The notes under the pieces: model-generated
Told to the model about the DNA's origin: nothing
What the model saw: the letters and a program-made list of their open reading frames with translations, nothing else
The model's database searches: none
In this document: positions 16,006 to 40,172 of the stretch, one piece after another
Numbering within the stretch: the stretch's first letter is position 1
How the letters are laid out: each line of letters starts with the position of its first letter
NCBI GenBank assembly: GCA_964291375.2
Contig: OZ219810.1
Coordinates: forward strand, 54,021-118,020
From: Paracoccaceae bacterium
GTDB lineage: Bacteria; Pseudomonadota; Alphaproteobacteria; Rhodobacterales; Rhodobacteraceae
Direction of reading: 5' to 3'
DNA length: 64,000 nt
Made by a program: the position numbers and the translations under genes

Positions 16006-18175
16006 TTCGCCAGCGCGTTGTGCCGCTCACCGTGAAATCCGCCGCGTTCACATTCTTCACGTCCTCGCTGAACGTCACCCGCCAGGTCACGCTGTCCGCA
16101 TTCGTCGGCGAACTCCCCGGCGTCTGATGCACAATCGACGCAACACCCGGCGCGGTGTTGTCGATCACGTAAGCGCTTTCATCCGTCCCCGTCGGCGCGG
16201 TGTCGGAAAGGGCGTTGTCGGCGAGGTCGGCGATATTCTGCCCGCCCGCAAAGCCGAGCGTCACCGTCGCATTCAGCCCCGCCAGATCGCCACCCGAGGC
16301 GGTCACGTCATACACAAGCGAGGCCGTCACCTGACTGACCGACAGCTGTGCCGTCGTGTTGCTCACCGTGAAATCCGCCGCGTCCACATTCTTCACGTCC
16401 TCGCTGAACGTCACCCGCCAGGTCACGCTGTCCGCATTCGTCGGCGAACTCCCCGGCGTCTGATGCACAATCGACGCAACCCCCGGCGCGGTGTTGTCGA
16501 TCACGTAAGCCCTTTCATCCGTCCCCGTCGGCGCGGTGTTGGAAAGGGCGTTGTCGGCAAGATCGGCGATATTCTGCCCGCCCGCAAAGCCGAGCGTCAC
16601 CGTCGCATTCAGCCCCGCCAGATTGCCCCCCGAGGCGGTCACGTCATACACCCTTGAGGCCGTCACTTCGCTGAAATTCAGCTGTGCCGTCGTGTTGCTC
16701 ACCGTGAAATCCGCCGCGTCCACATTCTTCACGTCCTTGCTGAACGTCACCCGCCAGGTCACGCTGTCCGCATTCGTCGGCGAACTCCCCGGCGTCTGAT
16801 GCACGATCGACGCAACACCCGGCGCGCTGGTGTCATAGACGGACGTGGCCTGCGTGGCCGCAGTGCTCGGGTTGCCCGCCGCATCCGTCGCCGCCGCCGC
16901 CGCAACGTCTATCGTCACCTCGCCCTCCGCCGAGGGCGTGATCTCCGCCGTCCACACCTGATCGGCGGTGACCGGGGTGAAGGACCCGGCCGCGCCGTTG
17001 CCGACGCTGATGTCGCCAACCACAAAACCCGTCACCGGCTCCGAAAAGCTGAACCGGGCGGTGAAGGCCGACGAACTGCGCGCCGGAACATCCGAAATCG
17101 TCACCCCCGGCGCGGTGTTGTCGATCACGTAAGCGCTTTCATCCGTCCCCGTCGGCGCGGTGTTGGAAAGGGCGTTGTCGGCAAGATCGGCGATATTCTG
17201 CCCGCCCGCAAAGCCGAGCGTCACCGTCGCATTCAGCCCCGCCAGATTGCCACCCGAGGCGGTCACGTCATACACAAGCGAGGCCGTCACTTCACTGAAA
17301 TTCAGCTGTGCCGTTGTGCCGCTCACCGTGAAATCCGCCGCGTCCACATTCTTCACGTCCTTGCTGAACGTCACCCGCCAGGTCACGCTGTCCGCATTCG
17401 TCGGCGAACTCCCCGGCGTCTGATATACGATCGACGCAATCCCCGGCGCGGTGTTGTCGATCACGTAAGCGCTTTCATCCGTCCCCGTCGGCGCGGTGTT
17501 GGAAAGGGCGTTGTCGGCGAGGTCGGCGATATTCTGCCCGCCCGCAAAGCCGAGCGTCACCGTCGCATTCAGCCCCGCCAGATTGCCCCCCGAGGCGGTC
17601 ACGTCATACACACGCGAGGCCGTCACCTGACTGACCGACAGCTGTGCCGTTGTGCCGCTCACCGTGAAATCCACCGCGTTCACATTCTTCACGTCCTCGC
17701 TGAACGTCACCCGCCAGGTCACGCTGTCCGCATTCGTCGGCGAACTCCCCGGCGTCTGATGCACGATCGACGCAACACCCGGCGCGGTGTTGACCACCAC
17801 CGGGCCGACAGGATCGCTCACAAGCGTCTCGGTGTTGGGGGTGGTGTCACGGTCGTCGAAGCTCACCCGCACCGCTATATGATAGCCCGCATCGTCGGCA
17901 ACCGGCGTGTAGGTCTGGCCGTCCGCGTCTTGAATTGGTACCGCTCCGGGGCTTACAGGCGAACCGTCAACTACTCTCAGGCGCACCCACCGGAAGCTGT
18001 AGCCAATCGGGAACGCCGTCGAGGGCAGACCATCCGCATCTGCCATATCCCCCGCGCGCGCCGTCAGCGTCCACACCGACAAACGCATCCCCCTCGATCT
18101 CCGGCGCGCCGGTCGCAGGGCTGTTGTCATCATCCAAAATTGTGATCGTCGCCGGGCCGATCCCGGTGCTGTCAT
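15983..18175 (-). CDS. giant gene fragment 4 (entry into the tandem array)
   Basis: LTARAGDMADADGLPSTAFPIGYSFRWVRL continues the module interrupted at about 18071. It is followed by cassettes A A B A A A. Confidence 0.8.
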   Translation of the reverse strand: MTAPGSARRRSQFWMMTTALRPARRRSRGMRLSVWTLTARAGDMADADGLPSTAFPIGYSFRWVRLRVVDGSPVSPGAVPIQDADGQTYTPVADDAGYHIAVRVSFDDRDTTPNTETLVSDPVGPVVVNTAPGVASIVHQTPGSSPTNADSVTWRVTFSEDVKNVNAVDFTVSGTTAQLSVSQVTASRVYDVTASGGNLAGLNATVTLGFAGGQNIADLADNALSNTAPTGTDESAYVIDNTAPGIASIVYQTPGSSPTNADSVTWRVTFSKDVKNVDAADFTVSGTTAQLNFSEVTASLVYDVTASGGNLAGLNATVTLGFAGGQNIADLADNALSNTAPTGTDESAYVIDNTAPGVTISDVPARSSSAFTARFSFSEPVTGFVVGDISVGNGAAGSFTPVTADQVWTAEITPSAEGEVTIDVAAAAATDAAGNPSTAATQATSVYDTSAPGVASIVHQTPGSSPTNADSVTWRVTFSKDVKNVDAADFTVSNTTAQLNFSEVTASRVYDVTASGGNLAGLNATVTLGFAGGQNIADLADNALSNTAPTGTDERAYVIDNTAPGVASIVHQTPGSSPTNADSVTWRVTFSEDVKNVDAADFTVSNTTAQLSVSQVTASLVYDVTASGGDLAGLNATVTLGFAGGQNIADLADNALSDTAPTGTDESAYVIDNTAPGVASIVHQTPGSSPTNADSVTWRVTFSEDVKNVNAADFTVSGTTRWRSDGLKGV

Positions 18176-21100
18176 GGGTGGCGGTGATCACAACCGTCTC
18201 GTCCGGCTCCTCGTCAACCGTGTCCTGAACCGCCGTCACCGTGGTTGTCACCAAACTCGTCCCCGCCGTCAGCGTCAGGCTCTCGTCGGCGATTGTGAAA
18301 TCGTCGGTCTTGGTCGCCGTGCTGCCGTCAAACGCCAGCGTGATCGTCTGGTCTGCCGCAAACGTCACCCCGTTGGTGATCTCAACCGTCACCGTTGATG
18401 TGCCCGCGTCCTCGGCAATCTCCACCGGGTCCACCGACAACGCCAACACTGGTTTCGGCGTCGCGTTGGTCACATCCTCGCTAAAGGTCGCCACCGGGTT
18501 GCCGCCTGTGTCCTTCAGCCGCGGGTCCGCCCCCGGATCGGTATAGCTGACCGTCACCTGCCCGCTGCCAAACCTGATCGCCGCAGAAAGCGTCAGGGTG
18601 ACCTTTGTGCCAGCAACGGAAACGTTATCGACCGACGGCCCGGTATCGCCCCCGATCTGCACCGTGAACGCCCCCTTATCCGGGATCGAAGCCGTATCCA
18701 GCGCCTCGTCAAATGTCAGCACCAGTTCCGCCCCGTTGACCTCTGGCGGCGTGTCCGGGGCCAGCATCGGCGGGGTGGCGTCCGCCACCACCGTGCCGCC
18801 CGGCGGATAGGCGACGCTGGCGCGTGTCTCGCCTGTTCCGCGTGTGTCGGTGAAGCTCACCTTCACCCTGACCTGCTTGCCAACGTCGTCGTCGGTCAGG
18901 GTATAAGTCGCGCCGGTCGCGCCGGAGATGTCGGCCTCGGTCGCGCCATCGACCCGCACCCATTGTAAATTGTAATCCGTCGGGAAGGTCGCATCGGGCA
19001 GCCCGTCCAAATCCGCAATATCCCCCGCATCCGCCGTCAGCACAGCGCCCAACTCTGCCGTGCCGGAAATCCCGGGCGTGCCCGTCGCCGGGCTGTTGGG
19101 GGCCGACAGACTGACCGAAACCTTTTGGCCCACAGTCCAACTGACCGTGAAACGCTCGATGTTCCAGGCAACTCTGCTGCGATCATTACCCGCGTCATCT
19201 CTACTATCCGAGAAGTTCAGGGAAGTATTGCCGACTTTCAGAACAAACCGGTTCTTTTGATCATTCGTCAGATCGTTTTTGAAATCAATGGTGAAGCTGG
19301 TGGCATTACCAACAACCGTTCTGAACACAGCCCGGACTTCGTTATCGCCATCCGGGAAGGTGAAATCATCACCACTCAGGCTGCCGTAAGTTGTGCTGAT
19401 CGTATCGTAACCTGTGTTAGCTCCTGTTATCCCCACCCCCAGGCAGGCGGTCCAGAAAGTGCCGTCAGGCTGGCCGGTGGTGGCGGGACATTCGGGCGAG
19501 CTGTTGGTCACCGCCTGGGCGGCGGTGAAGGTTGCGACAGGATTGCCAGCGGTGTCTTTCAGCCGCGGGTCCGCCCCCGGATCAGTATAGAGCACCGTCA
19601 CCGTCTCGCCCCCGATCACCGCCTCGGCGAGCGTCAGCGTCACCACCGTGTCAGCGACGGAAACACCCGAAACCGTTGTCGTGCGATCCGTATTGTCGAT
19701 GCCGGTCACCGTCACCGTAAACGCACTGCCCGCCGGTTCCTGATCCTCATCCAGCGCCTTATCAAAGGTCAGCGTCAGCGCCTTTGAGGTTACCGCCGCG
19801 CTCCCGCTCACGAACAGGGGCGCGGTGGTGTCGGGAACATCGGTGATATTGACCACGGCAACGGCGACAGTCCCCGCCGAAATCCCCGACGGCAGGGTTC
19901 CGAAACCCAGCGTGATAAACTCGCCGCTGTCGTTGAACGAATCCTCTGCCGCCGTGATCGTAAAGCTCTTCTCTGTCTCTGCCGCGCCAAAGCTCAGGCT
20001 GGCCGGAACCCCGGAATAATCATCCGCGCCCGCGCCGCCGCCGCCCGCTTCGCTCAGCGGTATCTCCACCACCCGGCCCGGCTCGGCGCTCAGCGTCACC
20101 GTGACCGTGACATCTTCGCCCTCATTCACGGTATAGGACGCCTGCCCGTAGCTGACCGACGCCTGCCCGGTGGTGTTCGTAGCATCTTCATCTGTCAGCG
20201 CCGCCGCCGGGTTTCCGGCCAAATCCTGCAACGGCGTCGCGTCTGCCCCCGAAGGCTGTCGATACGAAACCGTCACACTGTCCGATCGCGTCACCTCTGT
20301 GGCCAGCGTCAGCGTCACAACCCGGCCTGCGACCGCGACCGCGCTCGGGGTCTGGTCGGTGCCGTCCACGGTCACCGTAAACGCAGAACCGGGCGGCGTT
20401 GAGTCGGCATCCAGCGTCTCATCATAGGTCAGCGTCAGCGTGCCGCCGGTCGCCACCGCCATCTCGAACTCCGGCGCAGCCGTATCCACCCGGTGGTAGG
20501 GCCATGGCCCGTATGCGTCGTGCTCCAGGTCCGCCGTATTGTCGTGCTCATCCTTTATCTCTTCTGCGGCCAGCTTGTTGGCGGCAACACGTATCCCGTC
20601 GTCGGCCTGATCGCTGTCGGTAACCTCATAGGTGAAGACGAGCTTGGTATCGCCTGCGGCGGTGCTCCGGTCAGCGTCATAGGTGGCGGTGCGCTCTGTC
20701 CCGCCGACATCAATTTTGAGCGTCGGCGGGGGTGTGTCATCCAGGACGATGGCTTCGTGGAACGTCACCTCCAATGCGATTGTCTCGCCCTCTGCATATA
20801 CCCCGTCATGGTCTTCCGGGGGGATCGGCGCAATACTGACAACTTCGGGGCTAAGGGTATCAACCTCAACATCAAGGCTGGCATAAGGGTTGTCATTCCC
20901 GCTTTCGCTGGTGATCCGCCCCTGCGGCAAAAACACCGTCAGCGTTCCCTCGAAATTCTGCTTCGGACGAACATAGAAATCGAAGACCCGCTTCGCCGTA
21001 ACGGTCGCCCAATCCCTGTGAAAAGCACCCGCTCTCGGCGGGGAGCCGTTGGTGACACGTAAATCCTCGGACCTGTCAAAATGTCTGTCCCTCGGAAATC

Positions 21101-23192
21101 GTGTATCTTCGGGAGACTGTTCGTTTATAAGGTCCGGCACAGGCTGGTTGAATGTGATCCTGGCACGAAAGCGCCCTGTCACCGGCTCTGTCGCCTCGGT
21201 GGTTATGTCCGTTTCCATTGGCGGGGCATTGATCGGATAAGGGCCATAGGTTGTCTCTGCGTTGCCCTGATCCACCGCGTCTTCGCGCAGCGTCACCTTG
21301 ATCTCGTCGCCATGCGCACCGGTGGCAGCAACGAATACCCCATACGACCTGTTGCTTCGCAATTGGGTCATAAAATCAATATTTTGCAATACACGCCTCA
21401 CTTCGCCGTTCTGTACCGTGAAATCATCCACGTCCAGCCCGGTAACATCCTGACTGAAATTGAGCGCCACTATGAATTCCCACCGGGTGATAAGATGGTT
21501 TGTATTTACATCGAACTCCCAATCTTGCGGAAAGCGACCCGTTCTCACGGTTGGCCGCGGGGTGTCGTTGGTCACCGCCTGATTGGTCAGCGCCGCCACA
21601 GTGTTGCCGTCCTCATCCCGGATCGGGCTGGCCCCCACCGTGTAATCAAGCCGCACCTGCTGGGGCGCGAACGCCGGGCTGGCAAGGGTCAGGATCACCG
21701 TCTGGCCAGAGACGGCGACGGGACTGGTGCTGTCAAGCGCCCGCACCACGTTATTGATCCGCACCTCGAAATCATCCGCCGCCGGAACCGACGCCGTATC
21801 CAGCACCTCGTCATAGGTCAGCGTCAGCGTGTCGCCGCTCACCACCGCCGTCTCAAGCACCGCCGCACGGGTGCTGGTGACCGTTCCGTCGGACGGATAG
21901 GCGGCGCTGGTGAGCGTTTCCGTGTCCCCGCGCTTGTCGGTAAAGCTGATCCGCGCCTTGATCTGCTTGTCCTCATCGGCGTCCTGAAGCGTGTAGGTGT
22001 TGCCCGCCGCGCCGGTGAGCAGGCTCTCGTCATTGCCATCAACCCGCAGCCACTGCCAGGTATGTCCGTCAGGCAAACCGTCGCTGTCCGTGTCAAAACC
22101 GTCCGCATCCGTGATGCCGCTTGCTGTTGCCGTCAGCACCTGGCCCACCTGCGCGGTGCCCGTCACCGTCACCGTGCCCGTCGCCGGGCTGTTGTCGTCT
22201 TCGGTGATGGTGATCTCTGCCCCGGAGCCGGTGATCGAATAGGTCTGGCTGTCGGTGATATGGGTGTAGTCGGCGATGGCGATGCTGATCGTCCTGTCGC
22301 CTGTGTTGGCTGTGTTGTCTACCGCCTCAATCGTTGTCTCGACCGCGCTTTCGCCCGCAGCAAGCATCAGGGCCGTGCTGCCGATGGTATAGTCGGTTCC
22401 CTCGGTCGCCGTGCCGGTCAGCATCAGGGCGAAGGTCTTATCATCGGGGAACGTGTATCCGTTTGTCGAGCGCACCGTCAGCGTTGAGGCACCGCCATTC
22501 TCAGAAAAATCGTGTCCGCCGAGACATGACAGCTCCAGCTCCGGCGGGGCGTCATCATCGGTCACCGTGGTGGTCGCGGCAGAGCCGGCCCCGATCAGTG
22601 CATTGAAATTTGCATGGGGTGCCACCGTGATGCTCTGGGTTTCATCCGGTTCGTCCCGGCTGTCATCGGTGACCTGCGCCTCTACGGTGATGGTCTGCGC
22701 CGCCCCGTTCTCATTGTTGCCGGTTTCGAATCTGATCAGCTCATTGCTCAGAAGCTCAAGGTTGCCATTCCACCTGCCGCCGGACGTGGTGTCCTGCGCG
22801 TTCAGATACACCCGAACGTGCCGATCCCCCGACGGCATCGGCGCAGGCACCGGCGACAGCGTGACATTGTAAGAGACTGTCCCGGCATCCTCATTCACCG
22901 CCTGCGACGCAGGTGTGATCGTCAGCGTCGCCTTGCCGACCGGCCCGACGCCCGTGCTGGTCAGCGTCTCGGGGTTGCCGGCGTCATCATTGAACGACAC
23001 TTCCACCGCGATGTATTTGCCAATATCGTCGGCAGAGAGTGGCCGATATGTCGCCCCGGTTATGCCCGTGATCACCTCTGCGTTCGTCCCGGTCGCGTCA
23101 TCCTGGCGGAACCACTTGTAGCTATAGCTGACGCGGTTCAGCCCTTCCGTATCCGCAATGCCGGAGACATTCGCCGTCAGTGTCTCGCCCAC
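17967..23192 (-). CDS. giant gene fragment 3 (1741 codons)
   Basis: Same domain vocabulary: Calx-beta, SwmB-type repeats, one Cys-FW-Cys module and W-x-W sandwich modules. This frame is already open upstream to about 23325, where it continues fragment 2. Confidence 0.85.
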   Translation of the reverse strand: MGETLTANVSGIADTEGLNRVSYSYKWFRQDDATGTNAEVITGITGATYRPLSADDIGKYIAVEVSFNDDAGNPETLTSTGVGPVGKATLTITPASQAVNEDAGTVSYNVTLSPVPAPMPSGDRHVRVYLNAQDTTSGGRWNGNLELLSNELIRFETGNNENGAAQTITVEAQVTDDSRDEPDETQSITVAPHANFNALIGAGSAATTTVTDDDAPPELELSCLGGHDFSENGGASTLTVRSTNGYTFPDDKTFALMLTGTATEGTDYTIGSTALMLAAGESAVETTIEAVDNTANTGDRTISIAIADYTHITDSQTYSITGSGAEITITEDDNSPATGTVTVTGTAQVGQVLTATASGITDADGFDTDSDGLPDGHTWQWLRVDGNDESLLTGAAGNTYTLQDADEDKQIKARISFTDKRGDTETLTSAAYPSDGTVTSTRAAVLETAVVSGDTLTLTYDEVLDTASVPAADDFEVRINNVVRALDSTSPVAVSGQTVILTLASPAFAPQQVRLDYTVGASPIRDEDGNTVAALTNQAVTNDTPRPTVRTGRFPQDWEFDVNTNHLITRWEFIVALNFSQDVTGLDVDDFTVQNGEVRRVLQNIDFMTQLRSNRSYGVFVAATGAHGDEIKVTLREDAVDQGNAETTYGPYPINAPPMETDITTEATEPVTGRFRARITFNQPVPDLINEQSPEDTRFPRDRHFDRSEDLRVTNGSPPRAGAFHRDWATVTAKRVFDFYVRPKQNFEGTLTVFLPQGRITSESGNDNPYASLDVEVDTLSPEVVSIAPIPPEDHDGVYAEGETIALEVTFHEAIVLDDTPPPTLKIDVGGTERTATYDADRSTAAGDTKLVFTYEVTDSDQADDGIRVAANKLAAEEIKDEHDNTADLEHDAYGPWPYHRVDTAAPEFEMAVATGGTLTLTYDETLDADSTPPGSAFTVTVDGTDQTPSAVAVAGRVVTLTLATEVTRSDSVTVSYRQPSGADATPLQDLAGNPAAALTDEDATNTTGQASVSYGQASYTVNEGEDVTVTVTLSAEPGRVVEIPLSEAGGGGAGADDYSGVPASLSFGAAETEKSFTITAAEDSFNDSGEFITLGFGTLPSGISAGTVAVAVVNITDVPDTTAPLFVSGSAAVTSKALTLTFDKALDEDQEPAGSAFTVTVTGIDNTDRTTTVSGVSVADTVVTLTLAEAVIGGETVTVLYTDPGADPRLKDTAGNPVATFTAAQAVTNSSPECPATTGQPDGTFWTACLGVGITGANTGYDTISTTYGSLSGDDFTFPDGDNEVRAVFRTVVGNATSFTIDFKNDLTNDQKNRFVLKVGNTSLNFSDSRDDAGNDRSRVAWNIERFTVSWTVGQKVSVSLSAPNSPATGTPGISGTAELGAVLTADAGDIADLDGLPDATFPTDYNLQWVRVDGATEADISGATGATYTLTDDDVGKQVRVKVSFTDTRGTGETRASVAYPPGGTVVADATPPMLAPDTPPEVNGAELVLTFDEALDTASIPDKGAFTVQIGGDTGPSVDNVSVAGTKVTLTLSAAIRFGSGQVTVSYTDPGADPRLKDTGGNPVATFSEDVTNATPKPVLALSVDPVEIAEDAGTSTVTVEITNGVTFAADQTITLAFDGSTATKTDDFTIADESLTLTAGTSLVTTTVTAVQDTVDEEPDETVVITATHDSTGIGPATITILDDDNSPATGAPEIEGDAFVGVDADGARGGYGRCGWSALDGVPDWLQLPVGAPESS
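19105..19490 (-). other. Cys-FW-Cys module 8
   Basis: ECPATTGQPDGTFWTACLGVG ... FVLKVGNTSLNF ... VAWNIERFTVSWTVGQKVSVSL. Confidence 0.5.
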
Positions 23193-23211
23193 CTGTATCG
23201 TGCCTGCGGGA

Positions 23212-26200
23212 TCAACATTGTCGTTGATCGTCGGCGAGCCTGTCGGCGCGGTATTTACAACCTCGTTGACGATGGTGATCGTCTTCGGGGTGATACTGCC
23301 CGCAACCAGCGTCGTATCGCCATGGAGTGGCGGTGATGATGATTTTCTCGCCGTTGTCGTCGATGCTGTCGGCCACTGCCGTCACCGTCGTCTCAGCCGC
23401 GACCGAAGTTTCGTCCGCCGGAGGTTCGCCCGCCCGGAGCGTCAGGGTCTTGGTGCCGATGGTATAGTCCGCGCCCTCGGTCGCCGTGCTGCCGGCAAGC
23501 GACAGCGTGACCTGCTGATTTCGGCGGAACGTCACCCCGTTGGTGACCCCCACCCTGACCGTCGAAACGCCGCCAGCCTCGACAATAATGCCCGGCAACA
23601 CCCCCAGCTCCAGTTCTGCGACATCATTGTCGAGAATGGTGATCAGGGTTTCATCATTCTGAAGGGCATCGGAAAAAGTGAAAAAACTGTTTATGCCCGG
23701 ATTCCGTCCCACAAGCACTCTGAAGCTATGAGGCCCTTCCACCACATTATCATCTGCCGCCAACACTTGTATCGGTGCCTGTGCGCCCGCCGTAACCCCG
23801 CCCGAATAGGTTTTTGAGTAACGGATTTTATTGTTAGCCGGAAATGACGCATAGGTTGATATAAATTGATCACTTCCCAACTGAAAGCCTGTCGGTTGGG
23901 AAAAGCTGAGGTTCAGATCGAAATCAAATTCGATCGCTTTCGAGAAGTTGGGCACAAGATCAAGCGTATCCCCTTCCGTTACCTCGTAAGAGGTTTCGGC
24001 CAGGCTCACCGTGGCCGTGTCATCACTGGTAACTCTGCCAAGCGGTTGTGTCTCGGGCGTCAGCGTTTCCAGTGAAACGTCATAATCACCGAATACCGGG
24101 GCCGGGCCTTCCCACGCCATGGTGAACCCGAAATACTCAAATCTCTCAACCGTATCATCATCGAGGACCGGAACATCGAATGTGGCGCTGGTGGCCCCCT
24201 GGCTGATCGTCACCGTGGTATCAACCGCCGTGTAGTCCTGCCCCGCCGTCGCAGGGTGGTTGAGGCCTAAAATGTAATTGCCCGCATAGTCTGACGTGCC
24301 CATCCGCAGCGTCACGTCCCCGCTCAGCGCCACCCGGTCGCCATCTGCGTCCACAATCGCCAGAGTCACCGTCACAGGGTCGCCACTCGACTCGATCGCA
24401 CGGTATTCCCTGCGAGTTCTGAAAACATTGTCGAACTCAACGAATTTGATTGTGAGCGGGATTTTCTGCGTGTCGTTGCGCACGGACTGGCCGCTCAGGT
24501 TGGCGGCGTCATTCCCGGCCACGTCCTCAATCGGGTTTGTCCCGCCGGTATAGGTCAGCACCACCGCCTGATGGCTGAGCAGAAGCGATGTGGCCAGGGT
24601 CAGCCGCACCTCTGCGCCCGAGACCTCTGCCCCCGACACCGTTACCCCGGTGCCATCCGCTGTCACCGTGAAATCGCCCGCGCCCGGAACCGACGCCTCA
24701 TTCAGCGCCTCATCATAGGTCAGTGTCAGCGTTTTGCCGTTCCCCACCGCCGATTGCAGCACCGGCACACTGCGGTCCAGAACCGCCTGAGCAGTCAGGT
24801 TCGCGGCGTCACTCCCGGTCAAATCCTCAATCGGGTTGGTCCCTGCGGTATAGGTCAGCACCACAGGCACGCCATTGGTGACCACCGTCCCCGACGTCAG
24901 GGCCAGCACCACCGTCATGCCGGACACCGACACACCCGAAACCGTCACCCCGGTGCCATCCGCCGTCACCGTGAAATCGCCCGTGACAGGCACCGACCTC
25001 TCGTTCAGCGCCTCATCATAGGTCAGCGTCAGCGTATCGCCGTTCAGCGCCGCCGATTGCAGCACCGGCGTGTCGCCGTCCGTCACCGCCTGACCGCTCA
25101 GGTCATCGGCATCATTCCCGGCCAAATCCTCAATCGGGTTGTCGCCCCGCGTATAGGCCAGCCTCACCCGCAGGCCATTGGCAGGCGGCGGGGTCAGGGT
25201 CAGCACCACCGTCATGCCCGAAACCGACACGCCCGAAACCGTTGCCCCGGCATCGCCCGCCGTCACCGCAAAATCTCCCGGCACCGGCACCGACGCCCCA
25301 TTCAGCGCCTCATTATAGGTCAGCGTCAGGGTGCCGCCGATGATTTTCGCCGATTGCAGCACCGGCAGAACGTTGTCGAAATCGGTAATCGTGCCGGTTG
25401 CTGTCGTCGCTGTAGGGCTGGGATCAAGGGTCGCGTTGACCGGGCTTTTCAGCGTCACGGTGAAGGTCTCTTCCCCCTCTGTCACCGCGTCCTGAACCGT
25501 GGCTATGCTGATCGCCCCCTCGGTCGCCAGCGGCTCAAGGGTCACGGTGCTGTCCGCCGCCGTGTAATCGTCGGGCGCGACCGCCGTGCCGTCCGACGTG
25601 CTATAACCAAGTGTCACACGCTTTGCGCTCGCAGCCGAGAGCGTCACCGTGAACTCCACCGGCAACTCTTCCGAGGCCGTCCCGCCCGTGATCGACGCCA
25701 CCGGCGGCGGCACGGGGTTGGGCACGGTCGTGGTCGTCACATCCGCCACCGGATTCATGGCCGCGTCCCGGATCGGGTCTGTCCCCGGCGCGGTATAGCC
25801 TACCGTGACCTCCTGTGCATGAATGACCACCGGATCAAGGGTCAGCACCACCGTCATGCCACTGACCGCGACACCGGCAACCGACGCCCCGCCCGCCGTC
25901 ACCGTAAAGTCCCCCGCAGCCGGAACCGACCCCTCATCCAGTGCCTCATCATAGGTCAGGGTCAGCACCGCCCCGTCCTCACTCAGCACAATCGCATCCA
26001 GCAACGGCGGGGCGGTATCCGTCAGGGGCGTGGCATTGGCCACTTCCTGTTTTGTCAGCCCCGCCGCATTGTTCATCCACACGTCCCGGATCATGTCATC
26101 CTCGGGCGGCCCCGTCTGCGGCGTATAGACCAGCCGCACCCTCTGCCCGCGCAAAACCGCCGGGAACAGGGTCATATCCACCGTCGAGCCGCTGATGGTC

Positions 26201-29200
26201 ACATCCGACACCCTGACCGTATTGCCGTCCACCGTCACCGTGAAGGCATCGGCAGGCGGCACCGAATCCATATCCAGCGGCTCGCTATAGGTCAGCGTCA
26301 ACCGCTCACGATTGACCGAGGCCGAGGCCAGCACCGGCACGGTTTCGTCATCCACCGTCAGGATAAAGCTTGTCTCGACACTGCGGCCATCCTCTCCGTC
26401 CGTGCGGCCCGGCCCGTCATCGGCCTTCACCGTGACGGTGATCTCGCCCGCGGCAGATTGCGGCGGTATGCCGGAAAATGTCGTCCCGTCAAAGGCAAGC
26501 CATATGCCGGTGGCCGGATCGGTCAGCGCGGTGCCGTCCACGCTCGCCGTATAGGTCAGGGGATCATTCAGCGGGTCACTGAATGTCCCTGTCGGCAGGT
26601 CAAAGCTGAACGTGTTGCCTGCCACCACCGATTGCGCGGGGATGTCCGCCGCGACCACTGGCGGGGGGTTCTTGTAAAGCAACGCAACCGGCACCCTGTC
26701 ACGGGCATTGTCGCGGCCCCAGTCGAGGCGTCCGCCATCTGACCAGACGCGGAATGAGGGGATAGTGTTGAAACCGTCAGTACTGTCCTCAAAATCATAG
26801 GTCTCTCCGCCAACTTCCAGCGCCCAGCCATTCCTGATGGCTGCGCCGGGGTCTGAGTTGAACCTGAGATAAAGATTGGCAGTGTTAGAATTCGTTAAAA
26901 TGTCAGTAGATAAGTTTATAATTTCGTATGTGTCACTTCCCACGCTGAACGTGGCAACAGGGAGCAACTTCCCAAACATAGGAGTATTTCGAGATTCAAA
27001 CCCAAAGGCAAGACCGCTACCCCCAATCGTCAGGCAGGCGTCCCAGAAGACCTTCGCGGACGGCGCGGCGGGGCAGGACGGCGAGGTGTTGATAACCGTC
27101 TCATCCGTAAACCCATCAGCCGCATTGTTGCTGGTGTCGCGCAACTTGTTGGTGGAGTCATCGTCGTCATAGGACACCGTGACACGCTCACCGCTGATCG
27201 TGTTCCCGAGAATCGTCAGCGTCACCTCTGTGCCCGAGATCGAAACATCGGACACCGACGATACCGAATCGTCATCGTCGCCGATCTCGGTGCCGTTGAT
27301 CTTGACGGTGAACGCGGTAACGTCCGGTTTCGAGTTCGCATTCAGTGCTTCGTTATAGACAAGTGTCAGGGTCTTGTTGTTGACCGCCGCTGATTGCAGC
27401 ACCGGGCCGGTCACGTCGTTATCATTGTCCTCAATCGTGCCAGTGGCAGTTGCCGGGCCATGCCCCAAAATCGCGTTCACCGGGTTGCTGAGCGTAACGG
27501 TTAAGGTCTCGTCCGGCTCATGGTCGGTGTCATCTGTGGTTGAGATGGTGATCGTCTTGAAGTCATCCTCGTCCGACGCCTTAAAGACGAGTGTGCCGCC
27601 GCCTGCCGTGAAATCATCGCCCGCGGTCGCGGTGTCGCCGGTGACGGTGTAATCGACCGTTATATCAGCCGTATCTTCGTCGGCCCTTCCCGTCAGATCC
27701 ACCCTGAAGTTCAGAGCATTGCCTTCCTCGACCGATGCGACGCCCGAATCAAATGACACCGCCGGCAGCGTCGGCGTTATCTGCACTGTTTCCGTCTCCC
27801 GGCCATTGCCCACGGCGTTCACGGCCCGAAGCTGAAATTCATAGGTCGCACCGGCGGTCAGGCCCGTTACCTCGTGAAGGTTCACTAGCTGCGGGGCAGA
27901 GACGGTTGATGTCCATTCTGTCCATGTTCCCGTTTCCGGCGGTGTGCGGTGCCGCACCTCATAGCGGGTGATCGCCGAATTGCCGTTAAAGCCCGGTGGG
28001 TTCCAGCTCAGGAGCGCCCCCCTGACATCCGGGTCATTGAGGAGTATGATCGGCGGCTCGGGCGGGAACAGATTTGCAACCGTTACCTCATTTGAGGTGG
28101 CAGAGAGTGTGCGCCCAGCATCATAATAGACGGTCATGCTGAATGTGCTGCCTGCCCCCGGCGGGTCGGAAAATTCGATATAACCCGCTGTCGCGTCTGC
28201 AAGCGCCGTGCCACTGTCTATCGTGATGGCGGCGGGTGCGCCCCCCGACTCCGAGTCGGCCACAACATAAGATACAATGTCGCTGGTGTGCGAGGGCTGC
28301 TCCCAGGTGAAGTCGTATCTGAAGATGTGCGTGCCATCGTCCTGGTAAGAGTCACTGAGGGTTGGAGTGGCCAGTTTCGGCGGTTTGAAATCCACCGGCC
28401 CCACCGGATTGCTGACAAGCGTTTCCACATTGCTCGCAAGATCGGTGAAGCTGATCTGAACCTTTATGGTTGTGCCATAATCAGCGTCCTGAAGGGTGTA
28501 GGTTGTTGCCGTCGCGCCCTCAATCGGGGTCTCGTCCCCGCTGTCGCCATCAACCCGTATCCACTGCCAGGTGAGGTCATCAGGAAAACCGTCGTTGTCC
28601 GTGTCAGTAAAACCGTCCGCATCCATGATAGTGCCTGAGCTTGCCGTCAGCGTCTGGCCAACCTGCGCGTCGCCCGTAATCGTCACCGTTCCCGTCGCCG
28701 GGTTGGCCGGGCCGATCACAAGGGTGAAGGTATGGCTGGCACTGCCGCCCCTACCGTCATTCGCCGTCAGCTTTATCATCCACTCGCCTTCCGCCTCCGC
28801 TGGCGGGTTCGGGCTGACGAGGCCGCCCACGCCCGGGTCGTTCGGTGCGTATATGAGCCAAGAAGAGGGCAATTCGCTGTCGTCCGCCAGCGTTACGGTA
28901 TAGGTCAGACTATCCCCGTCCGGGTCGGTAAACATGTCCGCCGGGAAATTGTGGAAGAAACCGACACCAACAGACGCTTTCGGCAGTTCCACCACGTTCG
29001 TCACCACCGGCGGCCGGTTGACCGTCAGCGTGAACACATCGGCCACCATCCCGCCCTCGCCGTCAGCCGCCGTCACCTTCACCTGAAGCTCAAGCGCCCC
29101 GTCATAATCCGCAGCGGGCGCACCGGTGAACGTGGTTCCGTCAAAACTCAGCCAGGCGGGCAGCGCGCTGTCATCCTCCAGCGCCGCCGTATAGGTCAGA

Positions 29201-32200
29201 CTATCCCCGTCGTCCGGGTCGTTAAACGCACCTTCCGGCACCGCATAGTCGAGCGCATCGACCCCCACCGTCACCACCTGATCGGGAAGCTCACTCACCA
29301 CCACCGGGGCGCGATTCCCCTGCCGCAGGCTGACCACCACCCAATCGCCCACATCATCACTGCCCCAGGTAAAGCCGGGGCTGCTCCACCGGTAATGATT
29401 GCCCGCGCGCCAGGTGCTGTTGTCAAGCTCCAGGCTCTGCCCGGCAACCTCCAGGAACCAGCCATTGACCACCGGGCGCGGATCGCTCGTGAACGACAAC
29501 CGCAGCCCGAAACCACTGATCACAGACAACTCATCAACGCTGTTGCTCACCCCGCCATATTCAAAACCCGCCCCCAGAATCGCGCCTTTCGTGCCCCTGG
29601 CCCCATAGCTGATGCCACTCGCAATCTCTCCCACCAGCACGCATGACTGCCAGAACACCCCTTCCGGCAGCGCCGCATCAGAGGCCGGGCAGACATCGGG
29701 CAACACAAACGTATTCGCCACATTCTGCGGCGCAGTAAAACCCGCCGCCGCATTCCCGGCCACATCCTGAAGCCGCGCATCAGTCGCCAGCGCTGGCGTG
29801 GCATAGGTCACCGTCACCGCCTGACCCTCAAGCACCAGCCCCTCCAGCACCAGGGTCACCACCGCCTCACTCACCGCAACACTTGCCACCGTCCGGGTCA
29901 CATCATTCACCTGCACCGTGAACGCCCCCACCGCCGGAACCGCCGTCGCATCCAGCGGCTCGCTCCACGTCATCACCACCTCTCTCAGACCGCGCACCAC
30001 CGGCGGCGGATCGGTCACCAGCACCGGCAGAGTGGTATCGGCAACCGTGATCGCAAAGATGTCCTCAGCCGTATCGCCCGCGCGCCCGGTCGCCGTCACC
30101 TTCACCGACACCACCCCAATATCCGCGAACCCCGGCGTCCCCGAAAACACCCGCGTCGCCGGATCAAACGCCAACCACCCCGGCAACGCCCCGCCAGCCT
30201 CCAGCGTCGCCGCATAGGTCGGCGCGGCACTGTCCGGGTTGCTGAACGTCCCGTCCGGGACCGTAAAGCTGAACGCCTCCAGCGCCTCGGCACTCTGATC
30301 GGGAATCTCCTCCAACAGGATCGGTTTCCGCCGCAGGCTCAGCTTCTGCACATTGCCCACATCCGACGCGCCCCATATGCTGCCCGTATTTGTCCATTCA
30401 AACTGCACGCCGTCCCCCGCCTGCGCAGGGCCGCGGCGCGTCGCATTGTCAAAACTCAGGTCCGTCCCGCCCAGCCGCAACATCCAGCCCGCCACCTGCG
30501 CCGCAGTCAACTCCGGCTTGATCCCGATACGCACTATATACCCATCGTCACCACCATTATCGAAATTCAAGATTCTACTGAACGAGTATTCGGCCCCGCC
30601 AAAGGTAAAGCTCCGGGGCACAAGAAACCCGATATTTTCAACACTTGACCGGTAAAACCCGAACACACCACCAGGATCGCTCCCCACCTCTGCACAGGCC
30701 CGCCAGAACGCATTCGCGGGATGCCCGCTGGTGCTGCATTGGGGCGTGTTATTGGCCACACTCAACGGTGAAAACGCCAGAACCGGCAGGCCTTGCAGGT
30801 CCAGCAGCCTTGCGTGGATACCCCGGTCCGGCACCACATAGGACACCGCGACGGTCTGTCCATACGGCACCGGTTTCGCCAGACGCAGGGTCACCACCGC
30901 GCCATGCGAATGCGCCTCGGCCACATCAACCGACTCACTGCCGACAACCACCGGGAACATCTCCGTCGCCAACCCCTCAAAGACGCTTAAAGACTCCAAC
31001 GCCTCGCTGAAGGTCAGCGTTATCTCATCATAGCGCACAACGGGCGGGCTGGTCGTGCTGAGCACCGGCACGGTGGTGTCGGTGATGGTCAGCATAAAGG
31101 TCGAACTGGCCGAGTCACCACTGGCATTCGCGGCCTTCACCGTGATCTCGATTTCGTCAATATCGTCCCTCTCCGGCCTGCCGGAAAAGCTGCGCGCCGC
31201 CGGGTCAAAGCTCAACCATGCGGGCAGTGCGCTGTCATCCGACTGAAGCGCGGTAAAGGTCAGCGGGTCGCCGCTCGACTCGATGATGCTGTCTGCCGGG
31301 ATCGTGTAGGTGAACCCCTGCTCCACTTCCGCGTTCAGGTCGGGGATTGCCGTGACCAGCTCGACCGGCGGGGGCCGCAGGGTGAAAGCACGGGATAGTA
31401 CCTGCGACCGCCCCCACGCTAAGCCATCGCCGTTCCGAAAATAGAATACGTGGTCAGAAGCAGGAAATGCACTTGGACAGGCGATAGTTTTGAGGGCGGC
31501 ACCAAGTCTTACGCTAGTGTATTCAATACCCTCATTAAATTCCATGATCCAATCGAGGGCGGCTTCGCCCGGATCATCTGCGAAGCGAATGCTTATACAG
31601 TTGCCATCACCTCCTATCGCAGTGATTTTATGGGTCTTGCCGTGGCGGGTGAAGGTGCTGGCGTCATTGCCATTGGCATCGACCAAAGCGCCGACATCAT
31701 TGTCCCCCGGGTTGTCAATATATCCACCCCACGCAAAAGTAGGTTGAGAAATTGGTTCAAAATCCTCGCAATCCGGATTGTTAAGACAGCTTACTATCTT
31801 CATGCAGCCGCTCCAGAATGTGCCCGGATGTCTTTGCGACGGGCAGAGAAAGGAGGGCGTATTATTTGTCACGCTCTGATTGGTAAAACTGGCGACCTCT
31901 CCGCCCGTGACGCTCCGCAACGGCATCGCCCCGGCACCGGTTGGCCTGGTATAGGACACCCGGATTCCATCTCTGCGCTCAATCGGTATATCGAGCGTCA
32001 GGGTCACCACCATGCCGCTGATTGACACCGCCGACACACGGATGTGTCTTTTCGACATCGTGAACGCGGACTTGTCGGGCACCGATGTGCTGTCCAAATC
32101 CCTGTCATAGGTCAGGGTCAGGGTGGAGTGGTTGACCGCCGCCGATTGCAGTTCCGGCGGGGTCAGGTCCGGCTGCACCGCGATACCATAGGTCCGGGAT

Positions 32201-35200
32201 GATTTGCCGGCGGGCAGGCTGCTGTCCGCCACGGCCTCGCTGTTGCCGCTGTTGTTGTCATCCACGGTGACGGTCACATCATACCGGTTGTCCCCGTCCG
32301 CATCAGTCGGGTTCGAGTGGTCCGGCGCGGTTTTGAAAAACAGGCCGCGCACCTTTTCGTCCTCGTCACAGTCGTCGGTATCGGGGCAGATGCGGCCAAA
32401 TTCAAACAGGCCGGCGTCCGGGCCGGTCAGGGTCCAGGTCCAGTCGTCTTCGTCTTCATGGCCAGTGGTGGTGGGGGTGACGGCGCGGTTGCCCTCGGTG
32501 ATAATCGGGGCTCCCTGGCAGCGTAAGGGTGCCTGCGGCCCGCTGCACAGGGATACGGGCCGGGGCACCCAGAGGCGGACATCCGCGGAGTCGATGATGA
32601 CGGCATCTGCTCCGTCGGGTTTGTAATACCCTCTGACGCTGACCTTGTAGTATGCGCCGTTGAAATCGTCATAGTCGTCTGCAAGGGATACATCTACATT
32701 GCTGTTGCCACTGCCACCGTCGGACGTGAAGGCGATCTGCGTCTGCCCGCCCGGGTCAGGAAAGTCCGTGTTGTATGTGTGGAAGGTGGTGCGGTCATCG
32801 CTTCTGAAAACGACTTGATAGTCGGTGATGTTGGCGGGCTTGTTTGTCCACTCGAATGCGGTGGTGACACTCCATTCCGGGGTCAGTTTGGTGTCGTCAA
32901 AGACCCAGGAGAAATCGGCATCGGTGACGGTCAGGACGACGCCGGTGCCGTCCACATTGTGGCCGGTGAATGGCCCGAACCGGGCGTGGGTCAGGGCGGC
33001 GGCGTTGTTGTTTTCGTCCCGCACGGTGCCGGTCAGGCTGTTGGCGGGCACGGCTATGCCGTTGATGTCTTTGTCGGTGTCGGCGACGGTGTAGGTGAAG
33101 ACCAGTGTGCTGCCGGTGCTGGCAGTGGCGTCATGGGCGAGGGTTTTGGTGCTGCTGCCAAGGGTGAAGGCCAGCATCGGCGGGCTGGTGGCGTCGGCGG
33201 TGACCGGTTGGTCAAAGGTGACCCTGAAGGTGATTTCGTCACCCAGTTCATAGATGTCGTCCGGGCCGGGGTCGGATGTGACCTCGATGCCGGTGATTTC
33301 GGGCGGGTTGGTGTCGGCGGTCAGGGTGAGCGGGAGCGTTGCCGGGTTGCCCGCGCCATGCTCGGTGAAGACCGCGTTGGCCGGGAGTTGGAGCGTTATC
33401 GTGCCTTCAAAGTCGCTGTCCGGCAGGATGCTGAACGTATAGGTCTGCGGGTCGCCGGGGGCGGGCCGGGCGAGGCTTTGCGCGGTGCCGTTGGTGACGG
33501 CGAGGTCGTCGGCGGTCAGGTGGCTGCCCGGCGGGAAGTCGCCCTGCGCGTCGAGCACATCGGCGCTGAAGGTTATGGTGGCGTCGAACGCGCCGGTGAT
33601 CGGTTGGGTGGCGGTGGTGGTGAGCGGCGTGACGGTCAGGGCATCGGACGGGGTGGTCGTGGCCCGGAATTGGGCGCGGTCATTGCCGTGGTCGAGGGCA
33701 TCGGCGGGGAGCGTCACCCGGACGGTTTCGCCGCCTGATCTGGTGGCGCGGGCGATCACGCAGAAGGTGGTGGGAGCGTCGGGGATACAGTCCGCCCCCG
33801 GCGGGATGACCCGCTCGACCACGCTGTTGACGGCAGAGAAGTCAGAGATGTCCAGCCCGGTGACCACCCAGTCGAATTCGAGGCTGAGGCGGAAGGGCCA
33901 GCGGGTGACGGTGGCGGCGTCGGTCTCCCACGGTTGGAGCAGGCGGGTGAGGGTGACGGCGGTGCGGGCAACGTCAAGGGACGCGATGGTGAAGGCCGCC
34001 GCCGGATTGCCTGCCGCATCGCGGACCGGTTTTGCGCCGGGGGTGTAGACGAGCGCGGCGGTATCCCCGGCGACAAGCACCACGGGCAGGGTCAGCAGCA
34101 CCGTCTGCCCGGTGACAGCGACGCTTTGGACCGGTTGTGCGGTGCCGCTGTTGACCGTCACCATGAACGCGCCCGGTGCCGGGATGATGGCTTCGTTAAG
34201 CGCTTCGTTGTAGGTGATGGTCAGCAGGTTGCCCCGCGCGGTGACGCTTTGGCGGACCGGCGCGGTGGTGTCCGTTGATGTCGGCGTCGCCTGCGCTGGT
34301 GCCGATCCCGGGCCGGGGCCGACGGCGTTCACCGCCCGGACCTCAAATTCATAAGCGGTGCCGTTGGTGAGGTTGGTCACCGTGTGGGTGGTGGTGTCCG
34401 AACCGGTCGGTGCCCAGTCCTGCCATGTGCCCGTGGAGGGCGGCGTGCGGTGCCGGACCTCATAGCCGGTGATGTCGGAATAGCCGACATCCTGCGGCGC
34501 GGTCCATGACAGGGTTGCCTGACCGGCCCCCGCCACCGCTGACAGGCCGGTCGGGGCCGCCGGAATGAACAGGCTTTCGACCTGTAGCGCATTCGATGGT
34601 GGCACAGTGAGCCCGAGGCCGCTGTATGACGCACTAAGTTGGATAGTGTATTGGCCTTGGCGCAGATCACTAGCCTCAACATCGAAATAGCCCTCAGTTG
34701 CCTCTGCCGCGCTGACGCCGGGATTGAGGCTAAGCGTTCGTGCTGGCACCAGCGAAGAAATGAGCGTATAAAACTGAATATCCGCGGCGTTCGAGGGCTG
34801 GTTCCAGGTGAGGGTGAATCTCACCTTGCGAACCCCATTGTCGCTGAAGGTGCTTGATGGCGTCACCGTCAGCAGTTCCGGGGGCCTCAGCGTTACCTGG
34901 CGCGCCGCGTCGCTGGTCCGTGCCTCTTCACTGCCCCCGACATCGGTGAAGATCACCCGCACCTTGATCCGTTTGCCAAGATCGTCGTCCTGAAGCGTGT
35001 AAGCCGGGCCGGTCGCGCCCTCAATGTCGGTCTCGTCCCCGCTATCAACCCGTATCCACTGCCAACGGAAAGCCGCGTCATCGGTCGGCAGCCCGTCAGC
35101 GTCGGCAATATCGCCCCTGCCCGCCGTCAGCTCCTCGCCCACAACCAGCTTGCCGTCCAAAAGCGGCACCGCTGGCAGAGAGATCACCGGCTTACCCGTC

Positions 35201-38200
35201 GCCAATGTGTTCGCGCCGACAGTGAATGTGAACTCATCCGTGGCCGTGCCGCCCTTGAGGTCATCCGCCGTCAGCCTCAGCGCAAGCGTGCCCTCGTCCC
35301 CCGCCTGCGGGGTGCCGGTGAAGCTGCGCGATGCCCCGTCAAAGCTGAGCCAGGCGGGCAATGCGCCGTCGCCCGACAGCGTGACCGTATAGGTCAGGCT
35401 GTCCCCGTCCGGGTCGATGAACGTGTTGGCCGGTATCTGATAGCTGAGCGCGTTGCCCACTATCACCGCCCGGTCCGGGACTTCGTTCTCCAGCACCGGG
35501 ACGCGGTTCGACTGAAGCAGAGCAACCGTCACCTTGTCGCCGACATTGGCAGAGGTCCAGTCGATGATAGTTGGTGACCAGGCGAATATGTTCTGTCTCA
35601 GGGTCGCATCGGCGAGGCTGTATGTGGTGTCCCCGATCTGCAAAACCCAGGTGCTGGCAAATGACACATCTGTGTTCGGGGTCAGTGACAGCCAGAACTG
35701 GTTAAGCGTCTCTGAATCCAAGAGCTGGCTGACCCGGAAATCGTTTCCGTCATGTCTGAAAGCGTCGGAAGAAAGTGTGCCGTATCCGCCCGACAGTGAG
35801 CGTCCTATCGTGGTCCCGTCCGCCCCGATCGTCAGGCAGGCATTCCAGACGGCATCTGCGGCGAGCGCCGGGTTCGGGCAGGCAGGCGAGACGTTCATCA
35901 CGACCTGACCGCTCAGCGCCGCCGCATTGTTTGTGGACAGATCCCGGATCGGCGCAGGGGTCGCCCCTGTTGTCGGCACGGTATAGGTCAGCGTCACCGC
36001 CTGCCCGCCGCTCACCGCCTCCGCCAGAAGGAGTCCGACCTGCGACGTGTCCCCGCCGATGCTCACATTACTTACCGACGGCCCCGTGCTCCCGCCGACC
36101 GTCACCGTGAATGCGTCCGTGCCCGGCACAGACCCCGTATCGAGCGGCTCGTCATAGGTCAGCATCACAACCTTGCCGTTCACCCGCGCCGATTGCAGAA
36201 CCGGCCCGGTGGTATCCGACGCCTGAACCGTCAGCGTGAAGTCATCGCTGGCAGTGCCGCCATTGCCGTCATCCGCCGTCACCTGCACCGAAAGCGCGCC
36301 CGCATTGGCCGCCAAGGGAGTGCCGGAAAAGACGCGCGTCGCCCCGTCAAAGGTCAGCCATGCAGGCAACGCGCTGCCGTCCTCCAGCGCCGCCGTATAG
36401 GTCAGGGTATGCCCGTCCGCATCGCTGAACGTGTTCGCCGGTATCCGGTAGCTGAGCGCGGTGCCCACAGTCACCGTCCGATCCGGGATTGCGTTTGCCA
36501 CCACCGGGGCGCGGTTCTTCTGCAACAGGGCAACCGTCACCTTGTCGCCGACATCGCCGGATGACCAGCCAAAGCCGACGGGCGACGACCACACATAGGA
36601 CACTCCGTCGGCACCTGCCTGCGCGGTGCTCAGGTCAAAGCTGCTTGCGCCAAGCTGCAATGTCCAGCCTTCCGCCACCGTGCCCGGCGCAGCGGCGAAC
36701 CGAAGCGATAAACCGCCCGTGCTTTCATAGGTGATGGCGCTGATGGTGTGGGCGTTTCCGTCGTGGCTGAACGAAGGGGTGGACAGAACGCCGTAATTGT
36801 CCGCCGCATTGTATCCGAACGACCCGCTCTGTTCGGCCACTGTCAGACAGACGCGCCAGAACGGATTGCCCGGCAGGCTCGGGTCCGGGCAGGCGCGCGT
36901 TGAGTTGCGAACCTCTGTCCCGTCAAGCGCCACCGCCGGGTTTCCGTTCAAATCCCGGATCGGCGCAGGGGTCGCCCCTGTCGGCACGGTATAGCTCAGT
37001 GCCACCGCCTGCCCGGCGCTCACCGGCGAGATCAGGGTCAGGATGACCGCCTCGCCATCGACCTGCACAGCCGATACCGCACGGTTCGCAGCCGCAGCCC
37101 CCACTGCCACCGTGAACGCCCCCGCATCCGGGACCGAAGTCGTGTCCAGCGCTTCGTCATAGATCACCGTCAGCGTATTGCCATCCGCCACCGCCTCGAC
37201 CAGCACCGGGGCCACACCATCGCTAATCGTCAGGGTGAAGTCATCGCTGGCAGTGCCGTCACCCCGGCCATCATCCGCCGTCACCGTTATTATCAACGCG
37301 CCTGCATCGCCGTTCCCCGGCGTGCCGGTGAAGGTCGAGGTCGCCTCATCGAAGGTAAGCCATGCGGGCAGATCATCGCCGTTTGACAGCGCCGCGGTGT
37401 AGGTCAGGGGGTTGTTGTCCGGATCATCGAACGCATCTTCGGGGATGAGAAAGCTGAACAAGCTGCCCACCGCCGCCGTCTGGTCCGGAATCCCGTTACC
37501 CACCACCGGGGCGCGGTTCACGTTCCGCAGGCTGACCGGAAAGATTTCGCCAAGATTGTCACTGTCCCAGGAAAGGCCGGACCATGAATAAGTTACATCG
37601 CCATCCCCGCTCTTCATCGCTTCTTTGAGAGGGAAGGACCGCTCGCCGACCTGCAATGTCCAGCCGTCTGCGACCGCACCCGGGGCTGGGTCGAATGTAA
37701 TATCAAATTCAGATTGATAGGACAGGCCATCGACTTCGTATGTGACGCTATTGAAGTCGAAATCCTTGTCGGAGAGGTCGCCGAAATCTGCTGCAGACAA
37801 TCCGAAGCCAAAGTAGCCGAACCGGTCCGAAGCCTGAGTTGATTCCCCCACCGTCAGGCAGGCGTTCCAGAAGGCTTCCGCAGGCTGGCCGTCAGAGCAA
37901 CCGGGGGTGGTGTTGGTCACGCTCCGGGCGGGAAACGCACTTGCATCGGTGCCGGTCGTGTCCTGAATCGGGTTCGTGCCGGGCACCGTATAGGCGACCG
38001 TGACGGCCTCGCCTGATGCCACCGGCTCCCCCAGCATCAGGACAACATCCGTGCCACTGATCTGCACCTCAAAATCCGTGGTGTCCGTGCCGCCCACCAT
38101 CACCGTGAACGCGGTCTTGTCCGGCACAGACCCGGTATCCAGCGCCTCATTATAGCTCAGCACCAGCCTTGTGCCGTTGACCGTCGCCTCAACCGGCGTC

Positions 38201-40171: not shown

Positions 40172-40172
40172 G

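Follow-up and report, generated by a model that had tools for sequence, protein, structure and literature searches.

The giant gene and its repeated cassette

The window analysed here is a stretch of 64,000 nucleotides from a Paracoccaceae bacterium (assembly GCA_964291375.2, contig OZ219810.1, positions 54,021 to 118,020), whose minus strand carries, from 40121 down to 8105, a chain of open reading frames (ORFs) that we read as a single gene of about 32 kb interrupted by frameshifts, since the chained ORFs share the same kinds of domain. Along this gene, Pfam assigns SWM_repeat, He_PIG, Calx-beta, fn3 and AIR9/SCAB-Ig-like units (Ig, immunoglobulin) and a long Big_12 array. The subject of this study is a further module, which recurs eight times between these domains. 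The predicted giant protein would be exported by means of a Sec signal peptide, and paralogues encoded in the same genome are passengers of autotransporters.

8105..40121, minus strand: giant surface-protein gene, about 32 kb, an ORF chain broken by frameshifts that contains all eight modules
39957..40052, minus strand: predicted Sec signal peptide MGRTAHPLRTLWRAGLAAVVLAALPGGGTAWA, followed by QN, from the translation of the fragment 39552–40121, judged by eye

An earlier note, made from the letters of the window alone, had described eight recurring Cys-x-FW-x-x-Cys segments in this gene, and their existence is borne out by clean translation on the minus strand, by alignment and by profile recovery. 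All eight read without stops and start with C-x(8-11)-[FV]-W-x-x-C, with seven of them housed in the ORF at 23212–39612 (5,466 amino acids, aa) and one in the ORF at 17967–23192 (1,741 aa). Their alignment spans about 131 columns, in which C5, W15, C18, G44, F51, W115 and L128 are invariant, and the copies share 25–39% identity with copy 1. The coordinates given at the time hold except for copy 3, which starts at 35880 and not at 35890. Of the skeleton proposed for the module, the Cys/FW/Cys opening is found in all eight copies, whereas the closing G-[DE]-x-[VI]-x-V-x-L does not hold for copies 1, 4, 5 and 8. The modules are listed below together with their flanking domains, which in case of copies 1 to 7 were placed by Pfam and flank alignment, and for copy 8 by the best Pfam stretch.

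37915..38205, minus strand: SWM_repeat before copy 1
37525..37899, minus strand: module copy 1, 125 aa, 2 Cys
37213..37518, minus strand: He_PIG after copy 1
36907..37197, minus strand: SWM_repeat before copy 2
36520..36891, minus strand: module copy 2, 124 aa, 2 Cys, the copy used for the AlphaFold model
36208..36513, minus strand: He_PIG after copy 2
35896..36186, minus strand: SWM_repeat before copy 3
35512..35880, minus strand: module copy 3, 123 aa, 2 Cys, with a cluster of changes relative to the related contig L089 at 35587–35628
35200..35505, minus strand: He_PIG after copy 3
31861..32151, minus strand: SWM_repeat before copy 4
31375..31845, minus strand: module copy 4, expanded, 157 aa, 6 Cys or three possible pairs
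31063..31368, minus strand: He_PIG after copy 4
30754..31044, minus strand: SWM_repeat before copy 5
30330..30738, minus strand: module copy 5, 136 aa, 2 Cys
30019..30324, minus strand: He_PIG after copy 5
29707..29997, minus strand: SWM_repeat before copy 6
29321..29691, minus strand: module copy 6, 123 aa, 2 Cys
29011..29316, minus strand: He_PIG after copy 6
27091..27381, minus strand: SWM_repeat before copy 7
26675..27075, minus strand: module copy 7, 133 aa, 2 Cys
26365..26670, minus strand: He_PIG after copy 7
19578..19832, minus strand: SWM_repeat before copy 8
19105..19490, minus strand: module copy 8, 128 aa, 2 Cys, followed by an AIR9/SCAB-Ig-like unit and not by He_PIG

The two flanking families, SWM_repeat (PF13753), the repeat of SwmB from Synechococcus WH8102, and He_PIG (PF05345), a dystroglycan-type cadherin-like domain, score between 1e-39 and 1e-70 in Pfam, with 18 and 8 stretches respectively. 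When aligned, the seven SWM pieces preceding modules show a mean column identity of 48% and the seven He_PIG pieces following them one of 57%, and Pfam matches and flank alignments thus agree on the arrangement proposed for seven of the copies, with a SwmB-type repeat in front and a He_PIG domain behind. At the eighth copy He_PIG is missing, as had been stated, but an SWM repeat precedes this copy as it does the seven others, its best stretch covering residues 1121–1205 of the 1,741-aa ORF with the Cys of the module at residue 1235. Along a stalk of about 10,000 residues, the module is the central element of a recurring SWM_repeat–module–He_PIG cassette.

The module itself belongs to neither of its neighbours. 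None of the eight copies matches SWM_repeat at E ≤ 10 and none matches PF05345, and an alignment of the module profile by hhalign with the seven flanking copies yields probabilities of 0.5% for SWM and of 1.0%, over 12 columns, for He_PIG. These values, the folding of the module on its own (with a predicted template modelling score, pTM, of 0.87), its pure tandem arrays elsewhere and its varied partners, which in other proteins include SWM, fn3, cadherin-like, Big_9 and SCAB-Ig domains, rule out that it is a diverged or extended version of either fold, in agreement with the earlier note, which had treated it as a separate unit. The likeness to these extenders lies in the setting, as all are beta domains that recur in giant, exported proteins of the cell surface, and the module probably shares their broad role. 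The differences concern the unrelated sequence, the size of about 130 aa compared to about 90–100 aa, the abundance of Trp, the putative Cys staples, and a predicted structure that matches neither Ig-like nor other PDB folds.

Extent, export and genomic setting of the family

A search profile built from the eight window copies recovers exactly these eight in the window (E 1e-28 to 1e-48, positions 1–131), which as a result is self-trained, and the same copies match an independent profile of 71 members at E 2e-27 to 2e-35. A further 22 copies (E 1e-30 to 8e-12) reside in 12 other long open frames of the same two-contig genome of 2.70 Mb, and the resulting 30 copies represent a marked local expansion for a genome of 2.7 Mb. 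In a representative library of 1.84 billion proteins, 2,317 proteins match at E ≤ 1e-3, 675 at E ≤ 1e-10 and 73 at E ≤ 1e-30. Since the profile finds both the 22 extra copies in the genome and the 2,317 proteins in the library, the module is a real and widespread protein family and not a chance recurrence.

The matched library proteins are for the most part unnamed giants from metagenomes, mostly between 1,000 and 8,000 residues long, and contain up to 17 copies of the module. One of them (P0050), with a length of 906 aa, holds seven copies in a pure tandem array and has no Pfam match. All ten representative clusters that were looked up are unnamed ENA metagenome proteins, and the only relative with a name is annotated as 'hypothetical protein' in a metagenome-assembled genome of Boseongicola. 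Judged from samples, the module is rare among sequenced species, being present in 3 of 40 close relatives and in 3 of 400 genomes sampled over the class, and a narrower profile did not find it in 300 genomes sampled over the phylum.

Over 540 instances, the family core consists of a first strand [LIV]-W-x-[AG]-[TC]-L-T-V-G and of later hydrophobic and Trp positions; it continues with G-[YF], G-x-L-[ST]-[DP]-x-x-F and a long hairpin (Y-x-[VI]-x-x-L), and ends with L-x-L-x-[VL]-G-x-x-x-F-x-[LF]-x-D-A, [YF]-x-W, L-x-W and the closing strand G-D-x-V-x-V-x-L. We defined membership as a full-length profile match in which the conserved strand-1 Trp, G-x-L-[ST], F, both C-terminal Trp and the closing strand are all included, and all eight window copies are members by this definition. 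A calcium site at an acidic L-[ST]-D-D-D-F was considered and dropped, as the motif is not kept in the window copies.

Pfam-A (2025 copy) and NCBIfam 20.0 were scanned with the eight copies, with ten diverse relatives and with 71 diverse members one by one, and in neither library does any member of these three sets rise above a curated cut-off. Among the eight copies, only copy 8 touches the carbohydrate-binding module (CBM) family CBM_25 (PF03423), with 16.8 bits and E 0.0086 against a cut-off of 27.3; one relative touches BclA_C with 18 bits against a cut-off of 38, and among the 71 members CBM_25 and BclA_C appear once each, at E 0.0088 and 0.0047, both below threshold. The at least 27.3 bits that define membership of CBM_25 are reached by none of them. 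NCBIfam gave no match for the 71 members or the ten relatives and a lone one at E 0.14 among the eight copies, hmmscan of ten copies against PHROGs v4 returned nothing below E 0.2, and profile searches of PDB sequences reached best E-values of 0.3 and 0.55. In the literature, nothing relevant for the domain combination was found, and the motif strings occur in no paper searched. The module was not assigned to a named family when it was first noted, and these searches, which found no credible match in Pfam-A and NCBIfam and nothing in PHROGs (ten copies) and PDB profiles, have led to the same result.

The export of module-bearing proteins is apparent in several relatives, where the module follows directly, as the first domain, on a signal peptide ending in AxA and continued by Q. 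The genome that contains the window encodes 11 autotransporter beta-barrels of the family PF03797, five of which close module-bearing ORFs on contig C1. Since these five ORFs end in such barrels, the module in these paralogues rides in the passenger of a type Va autotransporter on the cell surface. Within the giant gene of the window, neither a match to PF03797, as is found in type Va autotransporters, nor a recognisable anchor was detected. It is because of the predicted Sec signal peptide and of the paralogues in autotransporter passengers that we expect the module to work outside the cytoplasm.

Other observations relate to the surroundings of these genes. On contig C1, three autotransporter genes, each about 2,300 codons long (1914292–1921419, 1941165–1947989 and 1951858–1959033), with several identical module copies and one inverted, constitute a recent duplication of giant surface-protein genes within 45 kb. 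In a different metagenome contig (L087; ENA ERZ24894577, contig ctg521765l, 1–9015), three DUF4096 transposase-like genes and a Phage-tail_3 gene surround a relative of 1,004 aa that combines SWM repeats with the module, a setting which suggests that module genes can be located in regions that are mobile or undergo rearrangement. In the window, the neighbours of the giant gene are of ordinary metabolism, comprising formate dehydrogenase subunits, histidine-utilisation genes and serA, and the neighbouring urocanase shows 78–83% identity to proteins of Rhodobacterales, Hyphomicrobiales and other orders.

Predicted fold and cysteine arrangements

An AlphaFold2 model of copy 2, based on an alignment of 24 copies from the same genome, has a mean predicted local distance difference test score (pLDDT) of 93.7 and a pTM of 0.87, and displays about ten strands and one short helix, with an unstructured N-terminal arm that bears the first Cys. 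A second model, for which we chose a divergent paralogue of this genome that lacks the arm and carries two Cys in loop 1, has a pLDDT of 81.7 and a pTM of 0.80 and shows the same strand order. As predicted by these models, the module is a compact all-beta domain that folds alone.

In a Foldseek search of 350,542 PDB chains (PDB to April 2026), no match at E ≤ 1e-3 was found for either model, with best E-values of 1.2 and 0.18, and the template modelling (TM) scores are at most 0.29 among the best 50 matches listed per model, none of which thus attains a TM of at least 0.5. Our claim is limited to the statement that no solved structure resembles the modelled domain by Foldseek, by which a new fold is not proven. 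A search of BFVD led to uncharacterised proteins of uncultured Caudovirales with a length of 127–141 aa (A0A6J5N3E1, A0A8A6CBR9 and A0A6J5S3G1). The best match superimposes with TM 0.65/0.69 over 124 columns at a root mean square deviation of 3.3, the three proteins range over TM 0.55–0.69 with 16–21% identity, and matches other than the best show a TM of 0.53–0.60, among the look-alikes being a segment of the gp9+10 baseplate/tail-pin protein of Aeromonas phage 65 (E5DRT4; TM 0.53). These phage proteins share the same predicted fold by Foldseek and the small ones are similar in size, but they bear no detectable sequence relation to the module, and their structures are predicted and not solved. 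None of 50,697 phage records was matched in a tblastn search with one member of the family, and the viral contigs searched yielded no relative of the module. AlphaFold modelling and a Foldseek comparison, which the earlier note had envisaged for a whole supermodule, have for a lone copy provided a confident predicted fold without a Foldseek match in the PDB, and look-alikes among predicted phage proteins.

The distribution of cysteines was investigated in 474 non-identical instances, in which related sequences do not count as independent, so that a Fisher P value overstates the case, and is as follows.

No Cys: 129 of 474 (27%)
Upstream Cys and Cys at W+3, the window type: 109 of 474 (about 23%)
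Upstream Cys and Cys at W+1: 78 of 474
Upstream Cys and Cys at profile position 86 ('LHVC'): 66 of 474
Two Cys inside loop 1: 77 of 474
Odd (unpaired) Cys: about 12 of 474

Cysteines are thus either absent or paired in 462 of the 474 instances, with the pairs found in four alternative arrangements, and the two cysteines of the window type are present in a fifth to a third of the 540 instances. The Cys pair, which had initially been regarded as the hallmark of the module, had to be abandoned in this role in favour of the first-strand core described above: Cys-x-FW-x-x-Cys marks a subfamily and not the family. Its proposed role in a disulfide-stapled extracellular fold has fared better, as it is supported by the Sec signal peptide and the strict pairing of Cys across the family, and both features of an extracytoplasmic disulfide-bonded domain, an export signal and the gain or loss of cysteines in pairs, are found. 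Because the cysteines occur in an all-or-none manner across four arrangements, as disulfides predict, we strongly infer from their sequence pattern that they form a disulfide staple. The same pattern predicts that the positions W+1, W+3 and 86 are close in space. In the subfamily of the window, the short arm N-terminal to strand 1 would be pinned to this strand by a disulfide linking the upstream Cys to the one at W+3.

In the window protein, leaving frameshift tails aside, every Cys but one is located 6–40 residues from a partner Cys. The six Cys of copy 4 (31375–31845) occupy module positions 1, 14, 20, 26, 83 and 123, two of which coincide with the sites of the loop-1 pair in other subfamilies. 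Extra Cys pairs (1942/1951, 2356/2365 and 2409/2415) are found in a region without Pfam assignment at 32368–33789, corresponding to residues 1942–2415 of the 5,466-aa ORF.

Role in the cassette and wider meaning

The module exists as an autonomous, unassigned domain of exported proteins. In our favoured reading, which we consider probable, it is an all-beta domain of about 125–135 residues that folds autonomously and works outside the cytoplasm, and that defines a large family absent from Pfam-A and NCBIfam for which there is no solved relative.

The role of this domain within the cassette may be reflected in its variability. Within the gene, the mean pairwise identity amounts to 34.7% for the module, 38.9% for SWM and 46.7% for He_PIG. 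Compared with L089, a metagenome contig (ENA ERZ24894577) with 98.4% DNA identity to window 32000–40300, three modules contain 18 amino-acid changes in 372 positions (4.8%), SWM 2 in 291 (0.7%) and He_PIG 2 in 306 (0.7%), the module thus changing about 7 times faster than its flanks. By the Nei-Gojobori method, the ratio of nonsynonymous to synonymous substitution rates (dN/dS) reaches 0.83 in the modules and 0.14 in He_PIG, with a value of 0.60 in the remainder of the gene. The module may be the variable, partner-contacting unit of each cassette and not a passive spacer, although its faster change is a weak hint of a variable, exposed unit and a passive spacer is nearly as likely. For the lectin-like or ligand-binding role that had been raised early on, the only hints are this faster amino-acid change and the one sub-threshold match to CBM_25. 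A functional analogy may exist to the ligand-binding inserts of giant repeat adhesins and to CBMs such as CBM_25, where a non-Ig beta domain on a stalk of Ig-like spacers is also more variable than the spacers; the module differs from these in that no CBM cut-off is passed, no structural match is found, and it is repeated along the stalk instead of being placed at its tip.

In the alternative that comes closest, the module would be a passive extender, a rigid beta domain that lengthens or stiffens the stalk and has no ligand of its own, with its fast change reflecting a weak constraint on its surface. Such a role, which we hold to be a serious if somewhat less plausible possibility, would account for the recurrence of the module at regular intervals of the stalk and not once at its tip, for the long tandem arrays of up to 17 copies in other proteins, and for conserved positions that are almost all core hydrophobics and glycines, and it is in line with the likewise high dN/dS of the remaining gene. 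The about 7-fold faster change compared to the adjoining Ig-like extenders argues against it, as does the presence among the look-alikes of segments from phage baseplate and tail-fibre proteins, parts that usually serve in binding, though neither argument is strong. A more far-reaching proposal sees in the module a fold without solved representative that serves as a fast-evolving partner-recognition unit common to giant bacterial surface proteins and to phage tail and baseplate proteins, whose stability would be tuned by lineage-specific disulfide staples in four positions. We consider this proposal unlikely as a whole; if true, it would define a new class of receptor-binding domain and not another spacer.

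Several points weigh against the favoured reading of an undescribed family of exported domains. The term 'undescribed' covers Pfam-A, NCBIfam, PHROGs (searched with ten copies) and the PDB, with AlphaFold DB, TED, CATH, ECOD and the newest InterPro being outside its scope. The conserved positions mostly belong to the hydrophobic core, and no conserved polar pocket, catalytic residues or binding partner are evident. The contrast in substitution rests on 22 changes, and 8 of the module changes are found in a single cluster of 14 residues in copy 3. This cluster (35587–35628) combines the 8 amino-acid changes with most of the synonymous changes of copy 3 in 14 codons and resembles a short tract of gene conversion, for which a paralogous module may have been the donor. 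In addition, L089 is rich in indels. At 1469–2146 of this contig, the formate dehydrogenase gene that lies upstream of the giant one is broken up into ORFs of 52–107 aa; L089 is therefore either error-rich or decaying, which weakens its substitution counts. Finally, the high whole-gene dN/dS (0.6) and several frameshifts in the assembly would also be compatible with a copy in decay.

That the gene is a dead pseudogene in this genome and its eight modules functionless relics is nevertheless improbable. Although the split of 32 kb into at least seven ORFs and the high dN/dS relative to a near-identical contig are in favour of this explanation, each fragment reads in a single direction through thousands of codons without a stop. 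The break near 39634 (39625–39640), which separates the fragment with the signal peptide from the 5,466-aa ORF, is absent in the 98.4%-identical L089, which reads through at a site where the window is one base short, whereas the indels of L089, located in the signal-peptide region (near 40027–39925) and at 32386, affect sites that are both intact in the window. This is the pattern expected of assembly errors, and since the breaks are not common to near-identical sequences, they would point to such errors or to very recent events and not to an old pseudogene. It is likewise improbable that the searches missed a very distant membership of the module in a known beta-sandwich superfamily (of carbohydrate-binding modules, lectins or Ig-like domains), as CBM_25 was touched by only 1 of 71 members with no cut-off passed, and as two confident models found nothing better than E 0.18 and a TM of 0.29 among their 50 best-ranked PDB matches each, whereas the same query obtains a TM of 0.65–0.69 in BFVD and is thus searchable.

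Collectively, the module constitutes a new domain family, though one of a well-known general type, the repeat units from which giant surface proteins are built. On many marine and host-associated bacteria, giant repeat proteins are the dominant surface component, and large parts of them are unannotated. In thousands of giant proteins, the module makes up about 130 residues of each cassette, and some of these proteins, such as the 906-residue protein with seven copies, are otherwise unannotated. A named model of the module would improve the annotation of metagenomes, and the determination of its structure would probably bring a new fold to light. The four Cys pairings offer a natural experiment on disulfide staples that move within one fold. 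If the module binds something, it would point to the attachment targets of the giant proteins, and a binding role or a link to phage tails, if shown, would raise its interest beyond annotation and structural coverage.

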